From the NCBI GenBank assembly GCA_013331695.1, contig DUFX01000036.1:1-45577 (forward strand): DNA of 45,577 bases, given 5' to 3'. The position numbers and the translations under genes are program-made. Under the pieces are notes generated by a model. It was not told the DNA's origin and searched no databases. It saw only the letters and a list, made by a program, of their open reading frames with translations. The stretch is from Candidatus Woesearchaeota archaeon. Its GTDB lineage: Archaea > Nanobdellota > Nanobdellia > Woesearchaeales > UBA12501. Of this stretch, positions 22,975 to 33,642 are shown one piece after another (the stretch's first letter is position 1; every line of letters begins with the position of its first letter).

Positions 22975-23003
22975 CTTTTCATCTCCTGAATTATATAAAA
23001 ATA

Positions 23004-23216
23004 ACGCCGCAGCCCGGATTACCACATAAGAACCTAAGGTTCTTATCATCTCCTACCAGGGGATTTTCTCGCTAACGCTCGAAAATCAGACTACGAAAAA
23101 CTACGCCGCAGCCCGGATTTGAACCCAGGACTTACTCACTTCGCTGCGCTCGTTCGTAGTCTGGCTTCAAATCCTTCGCAGCACGGATTCGAAAAGTCGC
23201 TTGCGTCTTCTCATTA
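23004..23216 (-). other. tRNA-like region: two copies of a T-arm/acceptor 3' end without a detectable matching 5' half
   Basis: ACGCCGCAGCCCGGATT is repeated exactly at 23004-23020 and 23103-23119. On the minus strand the upstream copy reads CTGGG-TTCAAAT-CCGGG-CTGCGGC-G. An 11-bp perfect inverted repeat (23087-23097 / 23153-23163) brackets that copy. A 9-bp hairpin lies at 23026-23046. I could not fold a cloverleaf by eye. Confidence 0.4.
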
Positions 23217-23341
23217 CGCCGCCACTGGGATTTGAACCCAGATATCCTTGCGGAAACAGGATCTTTACGGACCGGCACAGTCATGGGCGGCTGTTGCCTG
23301 CGTTAGCAATCCTGCGCAATACCGGATTATGCGATGGCGGC
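23217..23341 (-). tRNA. tRNA-Ser(GCU) with a ~41-nt intron at the canonical 37/38 position
   Basis: Hand fold: acceptor GCCGCCA/TGGCGGC. D arm GCAT-AATCCGGTA-TTGC. Anticodon stem CAGGA/TCCTG interrupted after TTGCTA (anticodon at 23305-23307, intron ~23263-23303). Long variable arm TTTCCGCAAGGATAT. T arm CTGGG-TTCAAAT-CCCAG. Discriminator G. A TATA box (TTTATAAA, 23378-23385) lies 37-44 nt upstream of the tRNA 5' end. Confidence 0.8.
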
Positions 23342-23632: not shown

Positions 23633-25636
23633 ATGGAAAAAAGAAGCGTGATAGGACCCAAAGAACTTATGGGTAGCTTGAAGCATCGTGTGCAAAAGAT
23701 GCTTCCCTTTTACAGTTCTCAACCATCAAGCAGGCATCATTCTACTCGTGAAAACCGGTGCCAAGGGATGCGCAATGTTGCGGTTGTCAAAGTGAGCAAT
23801 CCCCAACATAAAACCGAGACGATGCTGATTGTTTCGTTTGCGGTGCTCATTTTTGTCGTGTTCTTTTCTAGTTTTAGCAATACTCCTCCTTTTACAGGAA
23901 ATGTTGTACAGGATGCGGTGCAAATTAACCAATGCGGATTCAATCGCTGGGAAAACGGCAAAACCCATGTTTTAACACAAGACCTTGTTTTAAGTGCAGG
24001 AATTGATTGTTTAAACATTCAAGAAAAACAGGATATTGTTCTTGATTGTCAAGGCTATAGTATTACTACTGATCCTGCAGCAACGTTTCGTCAGCCTCCA
24101 AAAGGAATTTATTTGAGCGGTAATCGTCTAACGGTTCGTAATTGTCGTATTGCAAATTTTCCTTGGACAGGCATCAGTATCGTGGGGAATCACACCCTTC
24201 TTGAACATAATACCATCGAAAATAACCGTGAAGGTGTTGAAGTTGCAGCGATTCCTGCTCCACGCTTTGGTTTTAGTATTACTTCAACTACACTCCAAAA
24301 TAATCTGATCCAAAACAATGTTCGTTTTGGCGTTGTCATGAGGGGGTACGACAGTATCGTGCGTGGAAATGTCATCCAAGGGAATGGAAGAACAGGATTA
24401 GCACTTGTCGATACTGCAGTGGTCGAGAATACGGTGCTCTGCAATAACAACCGAGAAAATTTACCCGATAAAAAAGATCTTAAGTGTGGTGGCGGAAGCA
24501 ACAATCCCTCGCAAGGACAAGGAAACTTTATAGGAACGTTGGAGCGTTGTTTCGTACTTAACGCTCTTGCTTGGCCGACTGAATCAGATTATCAAGCGTG
24601 CGATCAAGCTCCTCCTCTTTCTCCTGATGTGGGTGTTCCTGTACAGGCTCCTTCGCGGGCTCCCCGCGACGCAGCATGTCCTTCACACCAGAATACCGAA
24701 TGTCAAGAAGGTTCAGTTTGCAGAAAACTCTTTGTGAGAGGAGATCCTACCCACTGGTCAGGAAGTAAATATTTCTGTAAAGGTCCTATGGCAGATGGCG
24801 GAATTTGCGAGCGAAATGACCAATGTGGTGCAGGCAAGAGTTGTGTGAATCAGAGATGTACTGCACCGCAACAACAAGGTCAAGAGCAAGCTCAACAGCA
24901 AGAACAACAACCACCGCCTCAGGCTGGCCGTGCGTGTGTGAATAATGCTGACTGTGGCGACGGTTTGCGTTGTCTTTCCCTGATTTGTCAAACAAGAGTG
25001 TGCAGTGAGACAGATGGAGGGAATGATCCTGCTGTTCCGGGAGTTATTACACTGGATAATTCGATTACTCCTAATATTGTTTCTCAAGATACCTGTCAAA
25101 ATGACGCATCGGTTCTCGAGTATTTCTGTTTGCCTAGTCATGAAAGTTCTCGGCAGGTTATGATGTGTCCTGGAGGAAGCACCTGTCAGACCAATGCTGA
25201 AGGTGTGGGTGCCTGTGTTGCTCCTGAAGCTCCACCACATCCACCAGCCGAACTTTCTGAAAATGATGCGTGCGGAGAAAATATTCCAACTCCCTGCAGA
25301 CAAGGTTTGCTTTGTAGAAAGAGCAATCCTGCCAGTCAAACTTTACAATGTCTTCTCCCTTCGGTGCAAGGCGGATTTTGTGAAAGTACTGATCATTGCA
25401 GTGCAGGTTTAACATGTCAAACAGGGCATTGTCTTCCCCCTCGACAGTGTAGAACTCCGGCAGACGAACAAGCACACGGCGGAGACTGCAACCATTGTGT
25501 AAGCATGCCTGAACTCATGCGATATATCGCTGAGTGGAACAATCAAGATCCTGAACAACGGCAACTTTCAGCGATTATGCTGGTTACTCAAGGATATTAT
25601 GATTCATTAGCTGATCCAGCATGTCAACAAGCATGA
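23633..25636 (+). CDS. membrane-anchored surface protein: right-handed beta-helix (PbH1/NosD-like) domain plus Cys-rich modules
   Basis: Signal-anchor MLIVSFAVLIFVVFFSSF. Beta-helix repeats: NCRIANFPWTGISIVGNHTLLEHNTIENNREGVEV, LQNNLIQNNVRFGVVM and VRGNVIQGNGRTGLAL. The C-terminal half contains many Cys residues, Q/P linkers, and a CSETDGGNDPAVPGVITLDN module shared with the next gene. The start is uncertain (TTG 23615, ATG 23633, or later Met codons). Confidence 0.8.
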   Translation: MEKRSVIGPKELMGSLKHRVQKMLPFYSSQPSSRHHSTRENRCQGMRNVAVVKVSNPQHKTETMLIVSFAVLIFVVFFSSFSNTPPFTGNVVQDAVQINQCGFNRWENGKTHVLTQDLVLSAGIDCLNIQEKQDIVLDCQGYSITTDPAATFRQPPKGIYLSGNRLTVRNCRIANFPWTGISIVGNHTLLEHNTIENNREGVEVAAIPAPRFGFSITSTTLQNNLIQNNVRFGVVMRGYDSIVRGNVIQGNGRTGLALVDTAVVENTVLCNNNRENLPDKKDLKCGGGSNNPSQGQGNFIGTLERCFVLNALAWPTESDYQACDQAPPLSPDVGVPVQAPSRAPRDAACPSHQNTECQEGSVCRKLFVRGDPTHWSGSKYFCKGPMADGGICERNDQCGAGKSCVNQRCTAPQQQGQEQAQQQEQQPPPQAGRACVNNADCGDGLRCLSLICQTRVCSETDGGNDPAVPGVITLDNSITPNIVSQDTCQNDASVLEYFCLPSHESSRQVMMCPGGSTCQTNAEGVGACVAPEAPPHPPAELSENDACGENIPTPCRQGLLCRKSNPASQTLQCLLPSVQGGFCESTDHCSAGLTCQTGHCLPPRQCRTPADEQAHGGDCNHCVSMPELMRYIAEWNNQDPEQRQLSAIMLVTQGYYDSLADPACQQA

Positions 25637-28600
25637 AAACAACAACCCATCTTGGAACGAGAACAACACGGATTTTGTTACTGATACTTATACTCCTTTT
25701 CTCTTTACCGGTTGTCTTTGCAAATACGGTTGAACGTTCCTTTTCTACACAAACCGTTCAACCACAAACTGAAATAACTGTTACGCTGACGATTGATGTA
25801 ACCGAAGCACAATTCTACAGCTGGCAAGAAACCGTTCCTGCGGGATGGACGATTGTACGAACCTCTCGAGGGCAAATTGCGGGAAGAACGATTGCCGATG
25901 TTGTCTTTGGTGGTGTTCAAGATACAACTGCCGAATATGTTGTTCGATCGCCTGATGCTCTGGGTCCTCATGCTTTCAGAGGAACATACATGTTTAGTGG
26001 AATGGCGCAAGAAGTACCGATTGCAGGACCTGATACGGTAACGGTACAAGCTCGCCTTGGTGGTGCGGGTGCTCCTTGTGGCGTTGATGCAGATTGCGGC
26101 GCTGATAACTTATTTTGCGTTGACTTTGTGTGCGACTCCTCCCTATGTACTGATACTGATGGGGAGAACTCGCCAATAGTTGCAGGTGTTGCAACCTTGG
26201 ATAATGAGGTTGCTGTTGATGTTGTTAAAAAGGATGAATGTTTTAATCCTAGTCAGACAAACGAATGGTACTGTCTTTCTCCTGAAGGCGGTTTGGCTAA
26301 CCTTCATGTTCCTTGTCCTGAAGGAACAACGTGTCAACCAAATGCTGAGGGTATTGGCGTGTGTCGAGCAGCTCCGCCCCCACCCCCACCCCCACCTGGC
26401 GGTGGTTTAGGAACTCTTGATCAAGCGTGTCGTCGTGCTGAACCCAAATGTGATGTGAATCTTGTATGTAATCTAGACAATATTTGTGAAGAAGCACCGC
26501 CTCCTGCTGAGCATTGCACCGATTCTGATAATGGTGATACTCCTGCTGTTCAAGGTACCACGCATGCAAGAGGTGGTCCTGGTGCTGAATTTATTGACTT
26601 CACTGACCGATGTGATGGAAATGTTTTGACTGAATTTGCTTGCGGAGCAGATGATATTCTCTCTGAATTTACTCATGATTGCAGCGCCGAAGGAAAGATA
26701 TGTCAAAATGGCGCTTGTGTTTTAGAAGAAGCAGGTGAAGTCCATCTTGGGGGAGGTGCATTAACATGTAACGATCCTTGTGTTCCTGAACTCGTGAATG
26801 CTTGCCGTCAATTTGTTGAAGATGAGGCACAGCGTCCTCAGCTTGTTCCTTGTGTGATGAGTGCTCTTGGTCGTGCCGATGCTCCTGTTGTTTGTCGTCT
26901 TGATCCTGCATGTGCTACACTTTTCCGTGAAGCAGAACTGTGCAACGTGCTTGAGGCCGGTGCAAAACAAACGTGTTTGAATGAAGTGCAAACTCGTCAT
27001 GCTGCTATTGCTGGAACGTGTGGTAGTCAACTCACGGACTTAACATATTGCTTGATTAGTCAAGGATTTAATGCAGGTGGTCTTGGCCAAGCTTGCCTTG
27101 ACAATCGTTGTTTAGAAGGATTTGGCTGTGATGCTCAAGAGATTTGTAGAAAACAATGTGAAAATAGTGATGTTTGCGACGTTGCGGGTGGAGAAAGTTG
27201 TAGGGAAGGCTTGTGTGTTGTTCCGCCACCACCTGTGGGAATCTTAGGCAGAGTATGTCGTGATGCTGAACCGAAGTGCGACGTGGGACTTGTCTGTAAT
27301 GCAGAAAATGTTTGTGAAGAAGCTCCTCCTGAAGAACCTATTCCTAAGCAAGAAGGAGAGGCTTGTGGTCCTGGTGATGTGTGTCGTGAAGGTTTGGGCT
27401 GTTATGGAGATATCTGTCAAACTTCTTCATGTACTGATACGGATGAAGCAGATGATCCTGCAGTTCCTGGTGTTGCGACCTTGGACAATTCAGTCAGTGA
27501 TGATATCGTGCATAACGATGCGTGTGTTGAAGGTCAAAATCAAGTAACGCAATTCTCTTGCGATGCTTTTGGTGGTATAAGCGAAAGTACGGTTGCATGT
27601 CCACCAGATACAACGTGTCAACCAAATGCTGAGGGTATTGGCGTGTGTCAGGGTGGAGAACCTGTTGTCGGACCTGCTCTTGTCTGCCTCGATCCTGACG
27701 GATTTGATACCTCTATTCGTAGTGTTACCTTTATGGGAGATCATGAATTTGCAGATCAATGTATTTCCGATGATACCTTACTTGAAGGCACCTGTAATGC
27801 AGACGGTAATGATATTGTTGATGTGCGTGTGCTCTGTCCAAATGGTTGTGAAGGTGGCGGATGTAGAATAGCTCCTCCTGACGGTGATTTAGGAACTCTT
27901 GGTCAGAGTTGCCGTGATGCTGATCCGAAGTGCGACGTGGGACTTGTATGTAATCTAGACAATATTTGTGAAGAGGTTGGAGGACCACCGGGTGCCGGCG
28001 GGGGAGCAGGTTCTCTTTCCTGTGAAGATCCTTGTGTTCCTCAACTGCTTGAATCATGTAGAAATCTTGTTGAACCCGAGGAAACACGGGAGCAACTTGT
28101 TCCTTGTGTGATGGATGCAATGATTCGTGCAGAAGCTCCTGTGCAATGTACGCTTGCTGATGGGTGTCTCAATGCAATTCGTGAAGGTCGTGCTTGCGAA
28201 GCGCTTCCTGAAGCTGAACGTCAAGCCTGTACAGCGGAAGTGAATACGCGTCATGCTGCTCTTCTTGGAACGTGTGGTAGTCAACTCACGGACTTAACAT
28301 ATTGCTTGATTAGTCAAGGATTTAATGCAGGTGGTCTTGGCCAAGCTTGCCTTGACAATCGTTGTTTAGAAGGATTTGGCTGTGATGCTCAAGAGATTTG
28401 TAGAAAACAATGTGAAAATAGTGATGTTTGCGACGTTGCGGGTGGAGAAAGTTGTATTGAAGGGCTCTGTGTTATCCCCCCACCTCCTGTTGGAATTTTA
28501 GGAACAGCATGCCGTGATGCTGATCCGAAATGTGATGCAGATCTTGTTTGTGATCCAGAAAATATTTGTTCAACCCCGCCTCCAGTTTGTGAAGATAATG

Positions 28601-29907
28601 ACGGCTTTAATCTTGCTGAAGCCGGAGAAGTGCATATCGGAAACTTCAGTTTTGTTGACGTCTGTCTCGACGAAAATAATTTGCTTGAAGCAGTCTGCAC
28701 ACCTGAGAACGATGATGTGCTTGATGTCCGAGCTGTCTGCGAACATGGCTGTGCAGAAGGCATTTGCTTGCAACCTGTTCCTTGTACTGACACTGATGGC
28801 GGTGAAGACGATCAAATCTATCGCGTTGGAAATGTTTTAGATGCAGAAGGAACGATTCTTGCTCGCGATGCGTGTGCTCCTGATGCACTTACTTTGCGAG
28901 AAGGCATGTGTGTTAATGGAACCATGCAGGTTGCTGATATTACCTGCGATGAAATGTGCTTTGCAAATGCTTGTACGCGTCCGCCTCCACCTCGTGAAGA
29001 GAGGGAAGATGAAGAAGACGAAGTTGAACCGCAAGAAGACGGAGGAGAAGAAGGTGGAGAAGAACGTCGTGGCGGATCTGGCGGATCACGTGATGATAAT
29101 AGTGGTCGCAGTGCAGGAGATCGTGGCCGTAGCAGTGGCGGCGATGACGGGGGAGGCGGTCGCGGACGTCAACGTTACGCGGGTTATGCTCCTGGCGGAT
29201 TCCCTGGCTGTGGAGATCGCTACTGTGATAGCCGCTTTGGTGAGAATGTTGTTACGTGTTCTGCTGATTGTGCTGTTCCTGGACAAGCTCCGCTTGTTCC
29301 ACCTGTAGCACCTCCTGGTCCTTCCCTGCCTCAAGTTGGAGTGGGTGGGCCGCCAAGCAGACCCTTGTCTGAACCAACTCCGCCACCACCTCAGCAGCTG
29401 AGGTATGGAGATACAGGACCTTCCCTTGCTGAACTGCAGATTCCTGAAGCTCAAAGAGGCGCAGAGTTTGACGTCGGTGAAGCATACGTGCCAGAGGAAA
29501 TACACGGTATAACTAAGATGGATATAGCGAGCTATATCTTTTTAGGTCTTGCATTGCTCGTATTAATCGGCGGAGGAACTGCAGGATACTTTGTGTACGC
29601 TCGATCCCATGCGAAGTTTGAGAAACTCAGACAATACGTTGAGTATTACAACAAACAAGGGTACACCAAGACAGCGATGCAGCAGCATCTCCAGAATTAT
29701 GGAGTGACACCTGACTATTTGGATAAACTCTACGGTGCTCTTGAAAAACAACAAGCCAAACAAACCGGTGCACTCGGTGCTCCTGTTACTAGCTCAGCAG
29801 AGCAAAGCTTCGGCGAAAAAATGAGCGGTGCCTGGCAGTCCTTCAAGTTTAAGATGCAGGATACTTGGGAAAGCATCATGTCTAAGTTTAGGAAGAAGGA
29901 GACGTAA
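25633..29907 (+). CDS. giant (1424 aa) modular Cys-rich surface protein with a C-terminal TM anchor and cytoplasmic tail
   Basis: The ATGA start overlaps the stop of the upstream gene. Signal peptide ILLLILILLFSLPVVFA. N-terminal beta-sandwich domain (ETVPAGWTIV). About 7 CxD(T/S/N)DG modules, 4 small LG(T/R)xCRDA(E/D)PKCD knots, and 2 copies of a ~150-aa Cys-rich unit. Poly-Pro linkers and a D/E/G/R-rich tract. TM helix IASYIFLGLALLVLIGGGTAGYFVYA, followed by a ~110-aa tail. Confidence 0.85.
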   Translation: MKTTTHLGTRTTRILLLILILLFSLPVVFANTVERSFSTQTVQPQTEITVTLTIDVTEAQFYSWQETVPAGWTIVRTSRGQIAGRTIADVVFGGVQDTTAEYVVRSPDALGPHAFRGTYMFSGMAQEVPIAGPDTVTVQARLGGAGAPCGVDADCGADNLFCVDFVCDSSLCTDTDGENSPIVAGVATLDNEVAVDVVKKDECFNPSQTNEWYCLSPEGGLANLHVPCPEGTTCQPNAEGIGVCRAAPPPPPPPPGGGLGTLDQACRRAEPKCDVNLVCNLDNICEEAPPPAEHCTDSDNGDTPAVQGTTHARGGPGAEFIDFTDRCDGNVLTEFACGADDILSEFTHDCSAEGKICQNGACVLEEAGEVHLGGGALTCNDPCVPELVNACRQFVEDEAQRPQLVPCVMSALGRADAPVVCRLDPACATLFREAELCNVLEAGAKQTCLNEVQTRHAAIAGTCGSQLTDLTYCLISQGFNAGGLGQACLDNRCLEGFGCDAQEICRKQCENSDVCDVAGGESCREGLCVVPPPPVGILGRVCRDAEPKCDVGLVCNAENVCEEAPPEEPIPKQEGEACGPGDVCREGLGCYGDICQTSSCTDTDEADDPAVPGVATLDNSVSDDIVHNDACVEGQNQVTQFSCDAFGGISESTVACPPDTTCQPNAEGIGVCQGGEPVVGPALVCLDPDGFDTSIRSVTFMGDHEFADQCISDDTLLEGTCNADGNDIVDVRVLCPNGCEGGGCRIAPPDGDLGTLGQSCRDADPKCDVGLVCNLDNICEEVGGPPGAGGGAGSLSCEDPCVPQLLESCRNLVEPEETREQLVPCVMDAMIRAEAPVQCTLADGCLNAIREGRACEALPEAERQACTAEVNTRHAALLGTCGSQLTDLTYCLISQGFNAGGLGQACLDNRCLEGFGCDAQEICRKQCENSDVCDVAGGESCIEGLCVIPPPPVGILGTACRDADPKCDADLVCDPENICSTPPPVCEDNDGFNLAEAGEVHIGNFSFVDVCLDENNLLEAVCTPENDDVLDVRAVCEHGCAEGICLQPVPCTDTDGGEDDQIYRVGNVLDAEGTILARDACAPDALTLREGMCVNGTMQVADITCDEMCFANACTRPPPPREEREDEEDEVEPQEDGGEEGGEERRGGSGGSRDDNSGRSAGDRGRSSGGDDGGGGRGRQRYAGYAPGGFPGCGDRYCDSRFGENVVTCSADCAVPGQAPLVPPVAPPGPSLPQVGVGGPPSRPLSEPTPPPPQQLRYGDTGPSLAELQIPEAQRGAEFDVGEAYVPEEIHGITKMDIASYIFLGLALLVLIGGGTAGYFVYARSHAKFEKLRQYVEYYNKQGYTKTAMQQHLQNYGVTPDYLDKLYGALEKQQAKQTGALGAPVTSSAEQSFGEKMSGAWQSFKFKMQDTWESIMSKFRKKET
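27013..27202 (+). repeat. intragenic perfect repeat, copy 1 (190 bp)
   Basis: Identical to 28267-28456 (offset 1254 nt, in frame). Encodes GTCGSQLTDLTYCLISQGFNAGGLGQACLDNRCLEGFGCDAQEICRKQCENSDVCDVAGGESC. Confidence 0.9.
28267..28456 (+). repeat. intragenic perfect repeat, copy 2 (190 bp)
   Basis: Identical to 27013-27202. The flanking parts of the duplicated ~150-aa unit have diverged. Confidence 0.9.
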
Positions 29908-30846
29908 TCATTGTTTTGAGAAAGAAGAAAGAAGATTATGCAGTTCTTCGTCGTTTTTTATGGTATTAAGTTTTCCCCGCAACGTTGCTGCATGCGAATA
30001 TCCTTTCGTAAAATGCTGTGCACATTGGCGGACATAAGCGAAGTTGTCAAGCTGATATTTTTTGAGCAGTTCGACATAGCGAAAAAATAATTGCAACTGT
30101 TCTTGGAGCGTGGGTTTAGGAATAAGCTCTCCTGTTTTGAGATACGTCACACAGCGTTTGAAAATGTGAGGATCTCCGATGGCTCCCCGTGCAATCATGA
30201 CATAATCACATCCGGTTTGCTCCCTCATTGCAACAACGTGCTGTGGTTCGGTGACATCGCCATTGCCGACAACAGGAATAGAAACTGCTTCCTTGACTTT
30301 TTTAATCATACTCCAGTCTGCTTTTCCAGAATACCCTTGTTCTTTGGTTCTCCCATGCACTGCAATCATTTTTACTCCTGCTTCCTCTGCTTTTTTTGCA
30401 ACGTCAACTGCTGTGATATTATTGTTGGTAATTCCCAGCCGAATCTTGCAGGTGATCGGGAATCCTGTTTCGCACAATGGTTTCAGGAGATCATGTACTT
30501 TTTGCGGATTGTTGAGCAGAGCAGATCCTCCTCCGCAGGCCATGATCTTACTGCTGGGGCATCCAAAATTGATATCCACAAAATCGCAGGTGTGTTTGAC
30601 AAGCTCAATGCTCTTTTTCAGATTGACTGCATCAGAACCGAAGAATTGGATGCCAACAGGCCGTTCTTTTTCAACGACAACAATGCGCTTGTTTTCCTCA
30701 GGATTTCGCACCACCCCTTCTGCGCTTGCAAATTCAGTCAGCACTAAGGCAGCTCCCATTTCTTTACAGAGTAATCTGAACGCTACATTCGTCACATCTG
30801 CCATGGGCGAGAGGACAAGGGGATTCTTCAGTTTCAGGAAAGTCAT
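29908..30846 (-). CDS. dus: tRNA-dihydrouridine synthase (Dus family)
   Basis: LSPMADVTNVAFRLL, INFGCPSSKI and VHGRTKEQGYSGKADW fit a Dus FMN TIM barrel. Its stop codon directly abuts the stop of the convergent giant gene (TAATCA at 29905-29910). Confidence 0.9.
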   Translation of the reverse strand: MTFLKLKNPLVLSPMADVTNVAFRLLCKEMGAALVLTEFASAEGVVRNPEENKRIVVVEKERPVGIQFFGSDAVNLKKSIELVKHTCDFVDINFGCPSSKIMACGGGSALLNNPQKVHDLLKPLCETGFPITCKIRLGITNNNITAVDVAKKAEEAGVKMIAVHGRTKEQGYSGKADWSMIKKVKEAVSIPVVGNGDVTEPQHVVAMREQTGCDYVMIARGAIGDPHIFKRCVTYLKTGELIPKPTLQEQLQLFFRYVELLKKYQLDNFAYVRQCAQHFTKGYSHAATLRGKLNTIKNDEELHNLLSSFSKQ

Positions 30847-30934: not shown

Positions 30935-31366
30935 ATGGATCTCAGCAAAATCAATTATGTTGGAATTAAAGAGATTACTGCAGATGAAAAACAAGATCTT
31001 GATGTGCTTCTTGCCCGGTTGTTCCCCAAACTTGAGCGCAAGCTTCCAGAAATGAGCGATGTTACCCTTCATATTAAAACCTATCAAAAAGGGGGAAACC
31101 GGAAAAAGTATTCTCTCCATCTGCGTATTTGTGCAGGAAAAAAGGTGTTTGAAGCCCATCATCCTGACTGGGATCTTCGGACTGCTACGCATCGAGTTTT
31201 CAACGAGATGCTGTCTCAGCTTGATCATCAGCTCCACACGAGCGATCAACGGCCGAAAGATCTCTTGAGGCGGACGCTCAAAGCCATCACCCCTGGATTT
31301 GCAGAAGACATGGGTATTCGCGTAAAAAAGAGGTTTGGCAATCTGTTTTCTCGAGGAAGAAAATAG
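30935..31366 (+). CDS. hypothetical protein with an HPF/RaiA (ribosome hibernation factor)-like pattern
   Basis: INYVGIKEITADEKQDL...FPKLERKLPEMSDVTLHIK...YSLHLRICAGKKVFEAHHPDWDLRTATHRVFNEMLSQLDHQL parallels the beta-alpha-beta-beta-beta-alpha pattern of E. coli HPF (NITG..VEIT...KLE...V.V.LK...A.L.V.G....A......AID...DKL.RQL). A GAGGTGGTGA Shine-Dalgarno sequence lies upstream. Confidence 0.45.
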   Translation: MDLSKINYVGIKEITADEKQDLDVLLARLFPKLERKLPEMSDVTLHIKTYQKGGNRKKYSLHLRICAGKKVFEAHHPDWDLRTATHRVFNEMLSQLDHQLHTSDQRPKDLLRRTLKAITPGFAEDMGIRVKKRFGNLFSRGRK

Positions 31367-31467
31367 GCGTAACAAGGTGTAAAATAGAAGTAAACCGAGA
31401 TCTCAACTCCTTCCTGCCTGGAGCAAAGCTTTATAAAGAAACTACTTTACCATAATTTCTCAATAAC

Positions 31468-31542
31468 AGCGGGATGGGGCAGCTAGGAGTGCCCGTTGGG
31501 CTCATAACCCAAAGGTCGAAGGTTCAAATCCTTCTCCCGCTA
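31468..31542 (+). tRNA. initiator tRNA-Met(CAU), archaeal type (A1:U72)
   Basis: AGCGGGA-TG-GGGC-AGCTAGGA-GTGCCC-G-TTGGG-CTCATAA-CCCAA-AGGTC-GAAGG-TTCAAAT-CCTTC-TCCCGCT-A. The three G:C pairs at the base of the anticodon stem and the AGCGGG 5' end are typical of archaeal initiators. Confidence 0.9.
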
Positions 31543-31554
31543 TACGCTTCTGTT

Positions 31555-31671
31555 ATTGAAAATTTGCGCAAGGGTCGAAAACCCCGCACTTCAGTGCGCA
31601 AATTTTCAATGCTCAAAAATTCTTTGAATTTTTGGCAGCCAAAAATCTTCGATTTTTGAGCTCCCAAAAAT
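31555..31671. repeat. inverted-repeat cluster: a 16-bp perfect IR plus five alternating CAAAAAT boxes
   Basis: ATTGAAAATTTGCGCA (31555-31570) pairs with TGCGCAAATTTTCAAT (31595-31610). CAAAAAT and its complement ATTTTTG alternate at 31614, 31628, 31640, 31652 and 31665, with a 12-14 nt period. Confidence 0.85.
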
Positions 31672-31803
31672 GCGCCCAAGTAAATTGCGAGCCAACAAAA
31701 ACTGAGTACCGCGTACGGATGATGGCGAGCAGATCAATCGTTTGGGTGCATTTTTGTTATACAAACTTATTTTGCTACGTACTTCATAACAATAATTCCT
31801 TCT

Positions 31804-31947
31804 GCTGCATCACCCATCACGCGCCACATCGTGGCGCGTTTTAGCCCCGGCACGCATATTGCGTGCCGGGAACTTGTCATAACAAGACCCGCGCTCGGAG
31901 CGAGCGCGGGGCAAGGCCACGCTTCGCGTGGCAGGGAATGATGCAGC
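31804..31947. repeat. 144-nt GC-rich multi-hairpin element: a closing helix encloses four perfect GC-rich palindromes and one short hairpin
   Basis: Closing helix: GCTGCATCA-CCC (31804-31815) with GGG-aa-TGATGCAGC (31934-31947). Hairpins: 31819-31839 (9 bp, loop ATC), 31846-31870 (11 bp, loop TAT), 31873-31886 (5 bp), 31888-31910 (10 bp, loop GAG) and 31916-31932 (7 bp, loop TTC). All pairs are Watson-Crick, so the strand cannot be determined. Confidence 0.85.
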
Positions 31948-31958
31948 CAAGGAGTTGG

Positions 31959-32028
31959 TTTTATTTTTAGTGAGTAAAAAATAAAGAAATTGATTATACA
32001 AAATGAGTATAGAACAAAAATAAAAAAA
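31959..32028. other. 70-bp very AT-rich tract flanked by CCAA(G/T)(G/A)(A)GTTGG-like boxes; candidate DNA unwinding element
   Basis: The tract ttttatttttagtgagtaaaaaataaagaaattgattatacaaaatgagtatagaacaaaaataaaaaaa has roughly 15-20% GC by eye. CCAAGGAGTTGG lies at 31947-31958, CCAATAGGTTGG at 32029-32040, and an inverted CCAATAGGT at 32066-32074. Confidence 0.4.
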
Positions 32029-32297
32029 CCAATAGGTTGGCACTGAGGTGATGAAGAATGCCCTGACCTATTGGTTGTACTCAAATGAGGCGATGGTTCC
32101 GTAAAACTCCGCTATTGAAGAGGCAAGGTTCGGAGTTTTACGTCTCATTGAGCATGATGAGCATCATAGAGGAGTGTCTCTATCGTCAGTTCTCTTGATG
32201 CTCTTCACCACCTCTTTTTTCCATTTTCCCCAACCCTTTAATGGATGAGGGAAAAAGCCTAACTTGTGTGACTAGGATGCAATCTGATTCAATGAAC

Positions 32298-33485
32298 TTA
32301 TATGCTGTCTCTCAGCATCTTGACCACTTTATTTTTGAGCGCGCTGTCAAGCGTCACTTCAATCTTCCGCGTCTTCTTTTTCAGGTCGGCAAGCCAGCCG
32401 ACTTCTGAGCGAATCAAACCCAGATCATTCAAATTAATGACCAGCGAACGTACTCTTCGCTCTGACAACGGCTGCATATTATAGGATTGACACGTTTCTT
32501 TATACTGTCGGAAGACATCCATCCCTGCAAGTCGGTCTTCACGTTGCTTCAGGATCGAGTAATACACCAATTTTTGATGCTGTGTCAATGACTTAACAAC
32601 CGAAAGGACGCTGTCCCGTTCTAGCGAACTATCCGCTTCATTGACATGTTCAAGTGTAATCTTGCTGTGCTGCCGCGCAACTGCCATTTTTGCACAGCTG
32701 TCCAACAGTTCAAGCGCTCGCCGTGCATCGCCGTCGCGCTGGGATTCAATTTGTGCAACTTTCCTCAGGACTTGATCACTCACCACATTTTTTTTGAATC
32801 CATATTTTGCACGATCGCGAATAATATCATACAATTCTTGTTCATTATAAGGTCTAAAGACAATCTTCACGCGCCCCAGCGAGGATTGGGTTTTCGGTTT
32901 AATATACTCATCAACCCGCACATCATTGGAAATGATGATCGTGGAAACATTTGTTTTGGTCTTGTTATGAATTCTGCTGAGCCGATACAGGACATCGTCT
33001 CCTGCTTCGCGAAGGACATAGTCCACTTCATCAAGGATGAAGACCAGCTGGGTGTTTGCATGTTGCTTCAGCACTCGCTCAAATTCTGCAACTGCCTTTG
33101 CGCGATTCCACCCCATCTTAGGATACTCGCGTTGGGAATCCAATTGTTTGAGGAGTTCGAGGAGAATCGTTGTTTCAGTCCGATTTTCAGAACAATTTAC
33201 ATAACAACTCACGAGTTTGATGCTGTTCTGCTGCGCCTCCTGCTCCAGCTCTTTCAGCAGACTCAGAATCAATCCGGTTTTTCCTGTTCCGGGATTGCCA
33301 TAGACTGCTGCGCAGATCACTGGGCTCTGCATAAGGATCGGAGCAAGCTCCATCACCAGTTCATTTTTCTCTTCATTGCGATGCAGGAAGCCTTCAGGAG
33401 GCTCCAATGCATACAGCACATCCCGGCGCTGATAAATCGGATTTTTCAGCACCGAGGCAAAGGTCATACTTGGCTTCTGTTCCAT
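32298..33485 (-). CDS. cdc6: Orc1/Cdc6 replication initiator (AAA+ plus C-terminal winged helix)
   Basis: Walker A: YGNPGTGKTG. Walker B: VFILDEVDY. Sensor and winged-helix region: GDARRALELL. The ATG at 33485 is preferred over the track TTG at 33494. The palindromic TATA box TTTATAAA lies at 33523-33530. Confidence 0.92.
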   Translation of the reverse strand: MEQKPSMTFASVLKNPIYQRRDVLYALEPPEGFLHRNEEKNELVMELAPILMQSPVICAAVYGNPGTGKTGLILSLLKELEQEAQQNSIKLVSCYVNCSENRTETTILLELLKQLDSQREYPKMGWNRAKAVAEFERVLKQHANTQLVFILDEVDYVLREAGDDVLYRLSRIHNKTKTNVSTIIISNDVRVDEYIKPKTQSSLGRVKIVFRPYNEQELYDIIRDRAKYGFKKNVVSDQVLRKVAQIESQRDGDARRALELLDSCAKMAVARQHSKITLEHVNEADSSLERDSVLSVVKSLTQHQKLVYYSILKQREDRLAGMDVFRQYKETCQSYNMQPLSERRVRSLVINLNDLGLIRSEVGWLADLKKKTRKIEVTLDSALKNKVVKMLRDSI

Positions 33486-33550
33486 TCTATCCAACCACCG
33501 AGGATCTCTCTGTGAAAACCGCTTTATAAATTTTCCTTCTTTTCCATCGT

Positions 33551-33642
33551 TTCCGATGCTTCCGATGCTTCTTATCGAGACGTGTATTTCCTATCCAGTG
33601 AAAATAAGAAGGAATAAGAAGGGGTAAGAAGGTGGGTGGGGG
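33551..33642. repeat. tandem repeats and an ORB-like box in the orc1/cdc6 upstream region
   Basis: TTCCGATGC x2 (33551-33568). TCCAGTGAAAA (33594-33604). (A/G)(A/G)TAAGAAGG x3 (33603-33632). G-run GGTGGGTGGGGG (33631-33642). Confidence 0.7.

Follow-up and report, generated by a model that had tools for sequence, protein, structure and literature searches.

REP and BIME elements are short, GC-rich palindromes that lie side by side outside of genes at gene 3' ends, often between convergent genes, and that vary between strains. They have been credited with mRNA 3'-end protection and with termination, which is also the action proposed below for the element described here. They occur in high copy number, their stems are imperfect, and they usually carry a GTAG or CGTC tag (PMC3733652) and are associated with a RAYT transposase (PMC2817692). 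Fungal and sponge mitochondria harbour elements of similar appearance, namely GC clusters, double-hairpin elements and repetitive hairpin-forming elements (PMC4478555, PMC2800124), all of which are GC-rich perfect hairpins in AT-richer spacers, polymorphic between strains and often nested. Bidirectional intrinsic terminators, found between convergent genes in bacteria, combine a strand-symmetric perfect hairpin with a following U-tract; since the RNA has to fold whichever strand is transcribed, such a hairpin must be symmetric. Finally, single-strand initiation signals and origins (G4-type, plasmid sso) and attC sites are folded single strands of about 100-150 nt with several hairpins. Each of them works on a single, defined strand, where mismatches and extrahelical bases are tolerated or required; they reside on phages, plasmids or integrons and have primase, Rep or IntI as partner proteins.

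Here, we describe a lineage-restricted chromosomal cluster of four perfect GC-rich hairpins in a groundwater population of Woesearchaeota (DPANN), which, as the data below support well, forms the apex of a quasi-palindrome of about 230 nt. It was found in a 45.6-kb stretch of DNA (the window), in the spacer between two convergent genes: initiator tRNA-Met on the + strand (31468-31542), in whose sequence A1:U72 and an anticodon stem with GGG/CCC were read as initiator features, and orc1/cdc6 on the - strand, with its stop at 32298. The distances of 260 nt to the tRNA and 350 nt to the orc1/cdc6 stop given in the original prediction are correct. The element itself spans 144 bases (31804-31947) and comprises the four hairpins and a weak fifth inside a closing helix (MFE fold of 31795-31960). 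The spacer is built of the following parts:

31555..31757, neighbouring hairpin modules: H-A (31555-31610), a 52-nt double CAAAAAT hairpin (31611-31662) and H-D (31664-31757)
31757..31803, left flank: TTATACAAA ... CTACGTACTTCATAACAATAATTCC, an imperfect inverted copy of the right flank, clearly better conserved than the background among A, B, C and D, with a weak TATA resemblance (6-7 of 9 positions of the promoter box TTTATAAAG)
31804..31815, closing helix, 5' half: GCTGCATCA (9 bp) and CCC, paired with 31934-31947 in either strand's MFE fold
31819..31839, hp1: perfect palindrome of 9 bp, ACGCGCCAC-ATC-GTGGCGCGT
31846..31870, hp2: perfect palindrome of 11 bp, CCCGGCACGCA-TAT-TGCGTGCCGGG
31873..31886, hp3: weak, AT-rich hairpin of 5 bp, CTTGT-CATA-ACAAG
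31888..31910, hp4: perfect palindrome of 10 bp, CCCGCGCTCG-GAG-CGAGCGCGGG
31916..31932, hp5: perfect palindrome of 7 bp, GCCACGC-TTC-GCGTGGC
31934..31947, closing helix, 3' half: GGG-AA-TGATGCAGC, with AA as a bulge, in the MFE folds of both strands
31948..31985, + strand, right flank, conserved: CAAGGAGTTGG, followed by TTTTATTTTT as a T-run at 31959-31968 and by a small AT hairpin whose loop is AGTGAGTA

On the + strand, the region 31795-31960 folds with -103.6 kcal/mol, compared with -61.4 +/- 4.4 kcal/mol for 200 dinucleotide shuffles, none of which was as good (z = -9.7), and the - strand fold of the element reaches -102.4 kcal/mol (z = -10.4). The arrangement proposed from the letters alone, four hairpins and a 5-bp hairpin in a closing helix without mismatch or G:U pair, is thereby reproduced: the + strand helices of the 150-nt element contain neither. 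Counted over the whole + strand fold, G:U pairs make up 0 of 54 pairs in allele A and 1 of 55 in allele D, and the lone one lies outside the five helices, which are free of G·T and mismatches in both alleles. In every allele, the two strands fold equally strongly, with energies within 1 kcal/mol of each other. A G:U bias from which the transcribed strand might be inferred was sought in all alleles and not found, and the wobble positions, few in number and located in H-A, H-D and the closing helices, contradict one another in direction. Perfect hairpins with a stem of at least 9 bp and a short loop cluster in this spacer within the window, with a single exception at 23025-23046. The element is indeed GC-rich, as had been noted, albeit with 64.6% instead of about 70%; the left flank has 39%, and only the 100 nt on the right, with 26%, lie below the 35% ascribed to the surroundings.

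Scanned against Rfam at gathering thresholds, the whole window yields two tRNAs only; for 31300-32400, with E-values up to 10, the best overlapping matches score 15-18 bits, against gathering scores of 55-400. This agrees with the initial impression that the element is no tRNA, SRP RNA, RNase P RNA or C/D RNA, and it extends to every other Rfam family. Neither strand has a C box near the 5' end or a D box near the 3' end, the hairpins lack the internal loops of H/ACA RNAs, and the Rfam snoRNA models are unmatched. The overlapping ORFs were rightly considered implausible: those at 31632-31844 (+) and 31767-32084 (-) have no Pfam match, a third at 31810-32043 (-) also overlaps, and none is credible. 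Any reading frame would be broken by a 49-nt length difference between alleles.

The 144 nt are identical in more than 15 independent assemblies, including the loci L001-L008, L028, L029, L036 and L052, from different samples and assemblers; the element is thus no assembly chimera. A more informative homolog is found in L037 (allele D), where all four GC hairpins recur in unchanged order at the orthologous and syntenic site. There, the unit begins about 10 nt past the tRNA, again between convergent 3' ends. Given that the orc1 genes of the window and L037 differ at 68 of 157 four-fold sites (43%), the cluster is not young, contrary to one of the options raised originally. The five helices (closing helix, hp1, hp2, hp4 and hp5) differ at 8 of 88 aligned positions (9%), and all eight differences form compensated pairs, four in number, while the indels in hp2 and hp4 are mirrored. 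By contrast, the loops and linkers show differences at about 25 of their 52 positions (48%; both are hand counts from alignments). This contrast is significant (Fisher p = 3e-7), and the probability of at most 8 differences in 88 positions at the neutral rate is 3e-12.

Individually, the hairpins are preserved in different ways. In L037, the hp1 stem is the same save for its basal pair, A:T in the window and G:C there, and its loop is AAT instead of ATC. The L037 counterpart of hp2, CCAGCACGCGCT-GAG-AGCGCGTGCTGG, is also a perfect palindrome, with substitutions and indels mirrored in both arms. That of hp4, CCCGTGCTCGC-AAT-GCGAGCACGGG, shows one compensated change from C:G to T:A and one extra apical pair. 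The hp5 stem is unchanged in both L037 and L053, whose loops read AAA and TTT, respectively; only this pair of loops fits an inversion. The region of hp3 reads CAAGTCATGACAGA in L037 and does not retain the structure, so that hp3 is probably not a functional part. The closing-helix core CTGCATCA/TGATGCAG is retained in the star-shaped alleles A and D. From these comparisons, constraint on the paired bases, the same on both strands, appears well supported, although the covariation part rests on few independent events, as the star alleles compared amount to two full sequences and one partial. Since this constraint is equal on both strands, it is the hairpins themselves that seem to be preserved, rather than the sequence of loops or junctions, and they probably matter for something. 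A protein-binding array of palindromes, as had been considered, is not supported: a half-site register common to all four is lacking, and their mirrored substitutions and indels fit a structure, not the recognition of half-sites.

The relatives also reveal considerable plasticity. Other strains, such as the near-identical L009, carry a 95-nt, imperfect single-hairpin 'rod' allele inside the same closing helix, where the rod alleles C and B have one mismatch each. Star and rod are unrelated architectures; the flanks of such strains are 99.7-99.96% identical, whereas the interiors are only about 55% identical (hand alignment). A simple 50-nt deletion from star to rod would have left a more similar interior and was rejected on these grounds, and an inversion switch was rejected because the rod does not correspond to the inverted interior of the star. 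L010 appears to be a mosaic of A and B, and two deep allelic classes are shuffled between lineages; both alleles occur together in samples such as ERZ27254836 and ERZ28563557. L053 has a partial copy in a second context: it lies 15 nt beyond the stop codon of Dus, across a Dus/143-aa/tRNA block, and lacks the T-run. In L054, there is no element within 70 nt of H-D, and a CCACGC..GCGTGG core occurs at a different spot of the spacer, within the palindrome CCCCACGC-TAAA-GCGTGGGG. Exactly at the element boundary, the gene order breaks in L053 and in L054, and on that side it is also unlike that of L011. Among the loci fetched, copies are confined to the orthologous site, to L053 and to this hp5-like hairpin of L054. 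The neighbouring modules vary as well: the 52-nt module is absent from allele B, all three are absent from L037, and the apex of H-D is replaced in L054. The 52-, 45- and 88-nt spacer modules hold direct or inverted near-copies of their flanks.

This pattern recalls template switching, which creates and repairs perfect stems and inverts loops (PMC8794818). Hairpins of this kind (Monttinen and Loytynoja 2022, PMC8794818) share with ours the reverse-complement arms, the mirrored multi-base changes and the stems extended from loop bases, as well as changed loops and inserts that repeat adjacent sequence in inverted orientation. Judged from the alignments, the element appears to evolve by such arm-mirrored changes: one arm would be copied from the other during replication, giving rise to paired substitutions, paired indels and stems that grow from loops, and whole hairpin modules of the spacer may be swapped or gained. 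Accordingly, hp1, hp2 and hp4 of the window and L037 differ by mirrored changes only, although this comparison is undirected, and hp2 resembles the apex of the rod with C/G inserted symmetrically. Loop inversion was considered for the differences between alleles A and D and dismissed, as the L037 loops are not reverse complements of those in the window. Template switching is, however, a mutational process and not a functional class, and it alone leaves the low substitution rate of the stems unexplained.

As a tentative best explanation, the element may be a strand-independent hairpin barrier at the point where transcription of tRNA-iMet and orc1 converges. Read-through RNA from the strong tRNA promoter would fold into the cluster and then meet the T-run TTTTATTTTT, so that transcription would stop short of an antisense run into the conserved orc1 3' block and orc1 itself. 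The same hairpins would fold in read-through from the orc1 side, and they would shield 3' ends from exonucleases. The positions are consistent with such a role, as the unit lies at convergent 3' ends in the window and in L037, and shortly past the Dus gene in L053. The T-run follows the closing helix after 11 nt on the + strand; it is kept in A, C and D, and B has TATTATTTTT in its place. Like a bidirectional terminator, the cluster is perfect and strand-symmetric; it differs in its archaeal host, in having the T-run on one side and in consisting of four or five hairpins instead of one, and it is described here from sequence.

Several points count against a barrier. Archaeal termination is generally held to need oligo-T only, and hairpins are not known to be required for it. 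On the - strand, no run of at least four T follows the element, and orc1 already has its own hairpin plus T7 (32076-32020), which is reached before the element. In one 20-kb scan, sites made up of a hairpin plus T-run are as frequent as chance would have it (19 found, 19.5 expected), and in another they are mildly in excess (30, against 19.1 +/- 5.1). Two changes in L030 are uncompensated, and the star form is not indispensable, since near-identical strains carry the very different rod. Finally, what looks like purifying selection on GC stems could be an effect of GC-biased repair within the hairpins.

A less likely alternative is a small non-coding RNA of roughly 180 nt (~31786-31968), encoded on the + strand. 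It could be transcribed from the weak TATA-like box TTATACAAA or arise by 3' processing of a tRNA-iMet read-through precursor, with the GC hairpins as its stable body and the conserved single-stranded leader or tail as its active part. Stems that are conserved or compensated, with loops left free, are what one classically expects of a structural RNA, the block from TTATACAAA to TTTTATTTTT is conserved in A, B, C and D with a fixed 24-nt spacing to a conserved ACTTCA, the element is a GC-rich island amid AT-richer DNA, and the unit of L037 starts close to the tRNA; tRNA-sRNA dicistrons have been reported in Nanoarchaeum. Yet the absence of G:U among about 80 helix pairs is unexpected for an RNA (P ~0.003 at an expected 7%), the loops are triloops and not tetraloops, the copy in L053 lacks both the leader context and the T-run, star and rod have nothing in common as folds, and Rfam offers no match. 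Moreover, the box agrees with the very uniform promoter box TTTATAAAG at only 5-7 of 9 positions and reads equally well on the other strand; a search with this box, the organism's own, found none of its type anywhere in the spacer, while perfect TTTATAAAG boxes stand at the tRNA, at orc1 and at a second tRNA. The equal folding of both strands in every allele also weighs against such an RNA and, together with the Watson-Crick perfection, for which the original prediction had named a DNA-level structure as one option, points to a DNA-level process or a requirement on both strands. One such possibility, which we consider doubtful, is a structural site in the DNA: hairpins in single strands, or a cruciform extruded with the help of the AT-rich flanks, serving replication (priming or fork pausing near orc1) or recombination, or acting as a rearrangement hotspot. 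The strict symmetry, the 3-nt loops and the equal strand stability would fit, as would the flanks, which are themselves an inverted repeat and pair with each other in the larger fold, the breaks in gene order at the element boundary, the shuffled allelic classes with the mosaic L010, and the proximity of orc1. However, with 7-12 bp the arms are short for a cruciform to extrude, and the 28 window ORFs scanned against Pfam include no recombinase, transposase, integrase or RAYT. Relatives with 57-72% Orc1 identity have no tRNA-Met, hairpin cluster or element homolog downstream of orc1; the element is therefore not a general part of the replication apparatus. The G4-type, sso and attC sites, to which the 'single-strand origin-like' idea of the original prediction corresponds, are likewise imperfect parallels, as the element is symmetric on both strands, has no such gene or context, and shows perfect stems with neither GTTRRRY nor RYYYAAC at its ends. 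In a broader form, also doubtful, it might represent a new DPANN cis-element, a hairpin array under strand-symmetric purifying selection that acts as folded DNA or by folding from both strands, whose two deeply diverged forms, a five-way star and a single rod, sit in the same closing helix and are exchanged between lineages by recombination; it could mark a place beside orc1 of DNA transactions tied to replication or recombination, and could promote rearrangement nearby. The replication origin probably lies elsewhere, and even a part in one, suggested by the nearby orc1/cdc6 and the adjoining AT-rich stretch (26% GC), is very improbable. The spacer has no ORB box, and the only ORB-core-like box, TTTTCACTGGA, lies upstream of orc1 and persists as far as a relative whose Orc1 is 72% identical, which leaves the label 'origin-like' unsupported. 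The motif TCCAGTGAAAA (at most one mismatch) occurs at 33594-33604 upstream of orc1 and at one coding site but not in 31543-32298, the upstream box and the GCATCGGAA repeats are conserved to L011, which is without the element, and the cumulative GC skew has no clear turning point at the element.

It is also conceivable, if rather unlikely, that the palindrome is non-adaptive: a by-product of template switching in a dispensable spacer, kept perfect and GC-rich by arm-to-arm copying and GC-biased mismatch repair rather than by a function. The spacer is a patchwork of modules that vary between strains (the 52-, 45- and 88-nt modules and the H-D apex), with inserts that resemble their own flanks in direct and inverted orientation; the star is dispensable, as is evident from the rod alleles and from L054, where it is absent, no strong promoter is present in the spacer, and single template-switch events are able to make perfect stems (PMC8794818). 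What such a process does not account for is the slowed substitution, as unbiased copying of arms would leave the rate unchanged, yet stems differ at 9% and four-fold sites, loops and linkers at 43-48%; the hp1 stem (save the L037 basal pair) and the hp5 stem are the same across three lineages, and a sufficiently strong biased repair is hypothetical. Less probable still is a mobile or dispersed palindromic family of the REP/BIME or MITE type, of which one cluster is seen here. The clustering of GC-rich extragenic palindromes at gene 3' ends, the second genomic context abutting the Dus stop codon, the hp5-like palindrome elsewhere in L054, the star/rod variation between strains and the lack of an element beside H-D in L054 are all reminiscent of such families. 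But no second copy exists in the window or in unrelated loci, and the four hairpins are orthologous and syntenic in L037 instead of scattered, with stems that are perfect, a closing helix of their own and, in a diverged lineage, stem-specific constraint; the mitochondrial families, too, are multi-copy and demonstrably mobile, whereas the element has one locus and one alternative context, with stems conserved across lineages. No GTAG, CTAC, CGTC or GACG flanks hp1, hp2, hp4 or hp5 when read in the sequence, and no transposase or RAYT is found among the 28 window ORFs scanned against Pfam. The closing helix could pass as terminal inverted repeats; there is, however, no target-site duplication, since the flanks CCTTCT / CAAGGAG are inverted and not direct, nor is there a clean empty site, A, B, C and D all being filled by star or rod. 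Searches with blastn gave no match among 50,697 phage and 72,556 plasmid records, and viral contigs contained neither hp2 nor hp5 plus closing helix. They did contain ten matches to hp1, all in phage DNA of 62-71% GC and in unrelated context, which we attribute to chance, as we do the 15 matches of the 5' terminus TGCYRCATCACCCATCRCGC among 185,579 species genomes, which all fall in unrelated bacteria and are close in number to chance expectation. The 22-nt conserved flank had no match in metagenome_contigs, a collection evidently without the JGI loci L003-L005, which carry this flank.

Non-coding functional elements of DPANN archaea are almost unknown, and the element described here was found from sequence alone, with evolutionary evidence of structural constraint. 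As a natural example, the locus shows with unusual clarity how perfect stems arise, persist and are remodelled, with mirrored indels, stems grown from loops and a switch between star and rod, and it is relevant to the template-switch model of how RNA and DNA hairpins originate. Should it prove non-adaptive or REP-like, it would be a modest addition to the catalogue of extragenic palindromes. If the strand-independent barrier is true, it would be evidence that stable hairpins matter for archaeal transcript ends, against the view that oligo-T suffices.

The element is a 144-nt cluster of hairpins in the spacer between tRNA-iMet and orc1/cdc6, which is arranged as follows (hp1 to hp5 are the hairpins of the element; H-A and H-D are neighbouring hairpin modules):

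29908-30846, - strand: dusB
30935-31366, + strand: 143-aa protein, adjoining tRNA-iMet
31468-31542, + strand: tRNA-Met with initiator features
Spacer, in order: H-A (16 bp), a 52-nt double hairpin (CAAAAAT/ATTTTTG units), H-D, the GC element, an AT-rich stretch, a conserved block
31804-31947: the element, read in sequence as GCTGCATCACCC-ATC-hp1-TTTTAGC-hp2-AA-hp3-A-hp4-GCAAG-hp5-A-GGGAATGATGCAGC
32298-33494, - strand: orc1/cdc6, with Cdc6 lid, AAA and winged-helix domains

The star-shaped fold of the original prediction is exactly the one returned by RNAfold: a closing helix of 9+3 bp, four perfect GC-rich hairpins with stems of 9, 11, 10 and 7 bp and 3-nt loops, and a fifth, weak hairpin of 5 bp. 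The fold energy is -103.6 kcal/mol, compared to -61.4 +/- 4.4 for shuffled sequences (z = -9.7), the opposite strand folds equally well (-102.4 kcal/mol, z = -10.4), and DNA parameters yield the same fold; the structure is real and strand-symmetric. With a GC content of 64.6%, the element stands between a left flank of 39% and 100 nt of 26% on the right. Apart from one at 23025-23046, all perfect short-loop hairpins of the 45.6-kb window whose stems reach 9 bp lie in this spacer.

The tRNA and orc1 converge on a spacer of 755 nt between their 3' ends; both contexts known for the element are gene 3' ends. The element's flanks, TACTTCATAACAATAATTCC on the left and GGTTTTATTTTTAGTGAGTA on the right, form an imperfect inverted repeat of one another, so that the element is the apex of a quasi-palindrome of ~230 nt. 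The Orc1 of the window is identical to a protein annotated in Candidatus Woesearchaeota MAGs, and the same protein is present on more than 30 groundwater contigs. The remaining genes are ordinary housekeeping genes, and a Pfam scan found a transposase, integrase or reverse transcriptase in none of the 28 window ORFs. ORFs overlapping the element were rejected as genes.

Several other features of the window deserve mention in their own right. The 143-aa protein has a sub-threshold match to Ribosomal_S30AE, a hibernation-factor (HPF) family (E = 0.013, 16.7 bits vs a cut-off of 23.7), and its homologs are detectable in a narrow clade only (3 clusters among 5.8 billion proteins). A 1428-aa ORF at 25621-29907 (+) has no Pfam domains and, at the DNA level, is marked by long repeats within the gene (300 nt with 92% identity at a spacing of 1254 nt, plus units of ~100 nt); contigs of different samples end at differing points within this gene. 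An intron-containing tRNA at 23217-23341 (- strand; Rfam, 44 bits), which was missed by ARAGORN, is preceded by two tandem TTTATAAAG boxes. Its 3' end (T arm and acceptor strand) is repeated at 23102-23128 and 23003-23029 on the - strand, each time followed by a T-run; these copies could be split-tRNA halves or attachment-site duplications left over from integration events.

Contigs of relatives (L001 to L054) were collected via Orc1, Dus and 143-aa proteins that matched exactly or nearly so, and resolved into six versions of the locus:

Allele A: the 144-nt star of the window, identical in L001-L008, L028, L029, L036 and L052
Allele B: L031-L035 and L039, ~90-93% identical overall; the closing helix is the same and encloses one imperfect hairpin of 95 nt (the rod)
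Allele C: L009, flanks 99.7-99.96% identical to A; a rod ~80% identical to that of B
Allele D: L037/L038, NCBI assembly GCA_053532475.1; a five-part star clearly homologous to A
Allele E: L053 1-65, Dus closest to that of D; starts with the 3' part of a star (hp4 arm, CTTAA, hp5, closing-helix half)
Allele F: L054 1-150, otherwise 98% identical to A; unrelated sequence in place of the element's left flank

Since allele A recurs on all these contigs, and in L030 with two uncompensated point changes, the element is not an assembly artefact. Allele D goes with an Orc1 that is 92% identical to that of A in protein and 84% in DNA. In L053, 15 nt separate the star from the preceding stop codon of Dus, at the other end of the Dus/143-aa (or 156-aa) protein/tRNA-iMet block, and only its 3' part is visible as the contig begins inside the element; it could represent a further copy, the result of a translocation, or a point at which a rearrangement broke the element's surroundings. 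In L054, H-D has a different apex, where a new perfect GC hairpin, CCCCACGC-TAAA-GCGTGGGG, built on the hp5 core, takes the place of the original one; past TATAAC the contig bears no relation to the window, so that the 70 nt available there include neither the element nor orc1. L010 is 99.98% identical to allele A until 4470 and of B type from there to the contig end (4470-5003, 92-96% identical), which makes it either a natural A/B recombinant that crossed over beside the element or an assembly chimera of two strains occurring together. In relatives with 57-72% Orc1 identity, both the tRNA and the hairpin cluster are absent downstream of orc1.

The comparison of A and D shows which parts of the element are preserved. 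At four-fold degenerate sites of orc1, 68/157 positions differ (43%). Counted by hand from the alignments, unpaired positions of the element differ at a similar rate (~25/52, 48%; 9 of the 12 loop positions), whereas only 8 of the 88 alignable stem positions do (closing helix, hp1, hp2, hp4 and hp5; Fisher p = 3e-7 against unpaired positions, and P = 3e-12 for 8 or fewer differences at the neutral rate). All eight form four compensated pairs, for instance the basal A:T pair of hp1, which is G:C in D, and a C:G pair of hp4, which is T:A in D. As hp2 has indels and hp4 one additional apical pair that are likewise mirrored in both arms, all stems are perfect in both alleles. In the third lineage, allele E, the hp5 stem is identical and the loop different again. 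Measured against these lineages, the element is thus old, with its paired bases protected while the rest drifts. We take this protection as evidence of a putative function, on a sample of two and a half sequences and with a possible contribution of GC-biased repair in hairpins.

This protection extends to both strands. The five helices of A and D contain neither G·T pairs nor mismatches in ~80 pairs (P ~0.003 for the absence of G·T pairs if an RNA-typical 7% is expected). The strands fold alike, with energies within 1 kcal/mol of each other in all four alleles, and the few wobbles found in the closing helices of B and C and in neighbouring hairpins point to differing strands. Nothing thus singles out one strand as the transcribed one, and what is kept in the element is kept for both.

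The spacer also turns over by whole hairpins. In homologous hairpins, every difference is mirrored in the other arm; hp2 of A resembles the apical palindrome of the rod (CCGGACGC|GCGTCCGG) with a symmetric insertion of C and G, and the apexes of larger hairpins are the sites of replaced segments. The modules by which A and B differ (52, 45 and 88 nt) are hairpins that nearly duplicate parts of their own flanks, in direct and in inverted orientation: the CAAAAAT/ATTTTTG double hairpin (31611-31662) and a 45-nt hairpin, GAGCATCA..TGATGCTC (32159-32203), occur in the A/C lineage only, and an 88-nt two-hairpin insert (L031 ~2700-2790) only in B, with a 17-nt deletion inside it in L034. A single event of replication template switching can give rise to a perfect stem, and the process can also restore pairing, lengthen stems and invert loops; the arm-mirrored changes and modules are the footprint described for it (PMC8794818). 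The distribution of star and rod departs from the flank phylogeny, given that A and C have near-identical flanks and the star is common to A and D; the allele classes must therefore be old and have been exchanged by recombination.

How should this element be interpreted? A non-adaptive palindrome, maintained by arm copying and biased repair, would be compatible with the mirrored changes, but we consider it unlikely given the protected stems; similarly small weight goes to a DNA-level hairpin or cruciform site linked to replication, recombination or rearrangement. A REP/BIME- or MITE-like repeated element appears quite improbable: neither the element nor any of its palindromes has a second copy in the window, phage and plasmid collections gave no match, viral contigs yielded only chance palindromes in high-GC phages, and the 15 matches of its 5' terminus among one genome per prokaryotic species were all bacterial and due to chance. 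An exact 22-mer, although present in the JGI-derived L003-L005, was unmatched in the metagenome contig collection, whose negatives for this organism therefore weigh little. Rfam returned only two tRNAs at gathering scores and nothing credible up to E = 10. The element matches no known family and is confined to one lineage. Its interpretation as a replication origin was rejected and is very improbable indeed: the sole sequence resembling the core of an origin recognition box (ORB), TTTTCACTGGA (33594-33604, orc1 strand), lies upstream of orc1, the spacer holding the element has none, and the region around the box (33560-33640), with a direct repeat of GCATCGGAA (two units) and a TTTATAAAG promoter box, is kept in B, D and L011, the last of which is without the element. 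This region, in which a single box was found, is the likely Orc1-binding or origin-proximal region.

A small RNA of the + strand, self-transcribed or derived from the tRNA trailer, is somewhat less improbable than these, yet still doubtful.

On the + strand, TTTTATTTTT follows the closing helix after 11 nt and is kept in A, B, C and D, while the - strand has no run of four or more T after the element. Perfect TTTATAAAG boxes are found at the tRNA-iMet gene, orc1 and the intron-containing tRNA, but none with up to one mismatch in 31543-32298; TTATACAAA, which is conserved to the left of the element, matches the promoter box weakly and reads the same on both strands. Hairpin-plus-T-run sites were as frequent as expected by chance in one 20-kb scan and only slightly more frequent in the other. 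On its own strand, orc1 has a hairpin and T7 ahead of the element, at the end of the conserved block of the spacer. A ~135-nt block there (32020-32155, - strand, directly 3' of orc1) is >95% conserved among A, B and D, recognisable in L011 (5320-5460; 72% Orc1 identity) and without a match in Rfam. It has an outer stem (CTCAATGAG/CTCATTTGAG), a hairpin (CCGTAAAACTCCG..CGGAGTTTTACG) with a stem compensated in L011 (GTAAAACCGC/GCGGTTTTAC), and a final hairpin (AACCAATAGGT..ACCTATTGGTT) before the T7. The loop of this final hairpin includes CAUCACCUC, which is similar to the anti-Shine-Dalgarno end of 16S rRNA; the block is probably a small RNA or a 3'-UTR element of orc1.

We tentatively favour a role as a very stable helix block where two transcription units converge. 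Most plausibly, the element would halt read-through from the tRNA promoter, before it could extend antisense into orc1 and the conserved block at its 3' end, and would additionally protect 3' ends on either strand. An essential role of any kind is disfavoured, because the star is dispensable, as seen in the rod alleles and in allele F, which has no element in the 70 nt past H-D. In its presumed mode of working, the element is most similar to REP/BIME clusters and bidirectional terminators, and it evolves like template-switch hairpins; as neither the element and its spacer nor the 28 scanned ORFs showed the defining features of the named families (copy number in the window, tag, RAYT, target-site duplication, ORB), we describe it as an extragenic palindromic hairpin cluster outside of these families. 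While the clade carrying it is narrow, its evolutionary signal is clean, which is unusual for a non-coding element in DPANN archaea, and the dimorphism between star and rod is striking.
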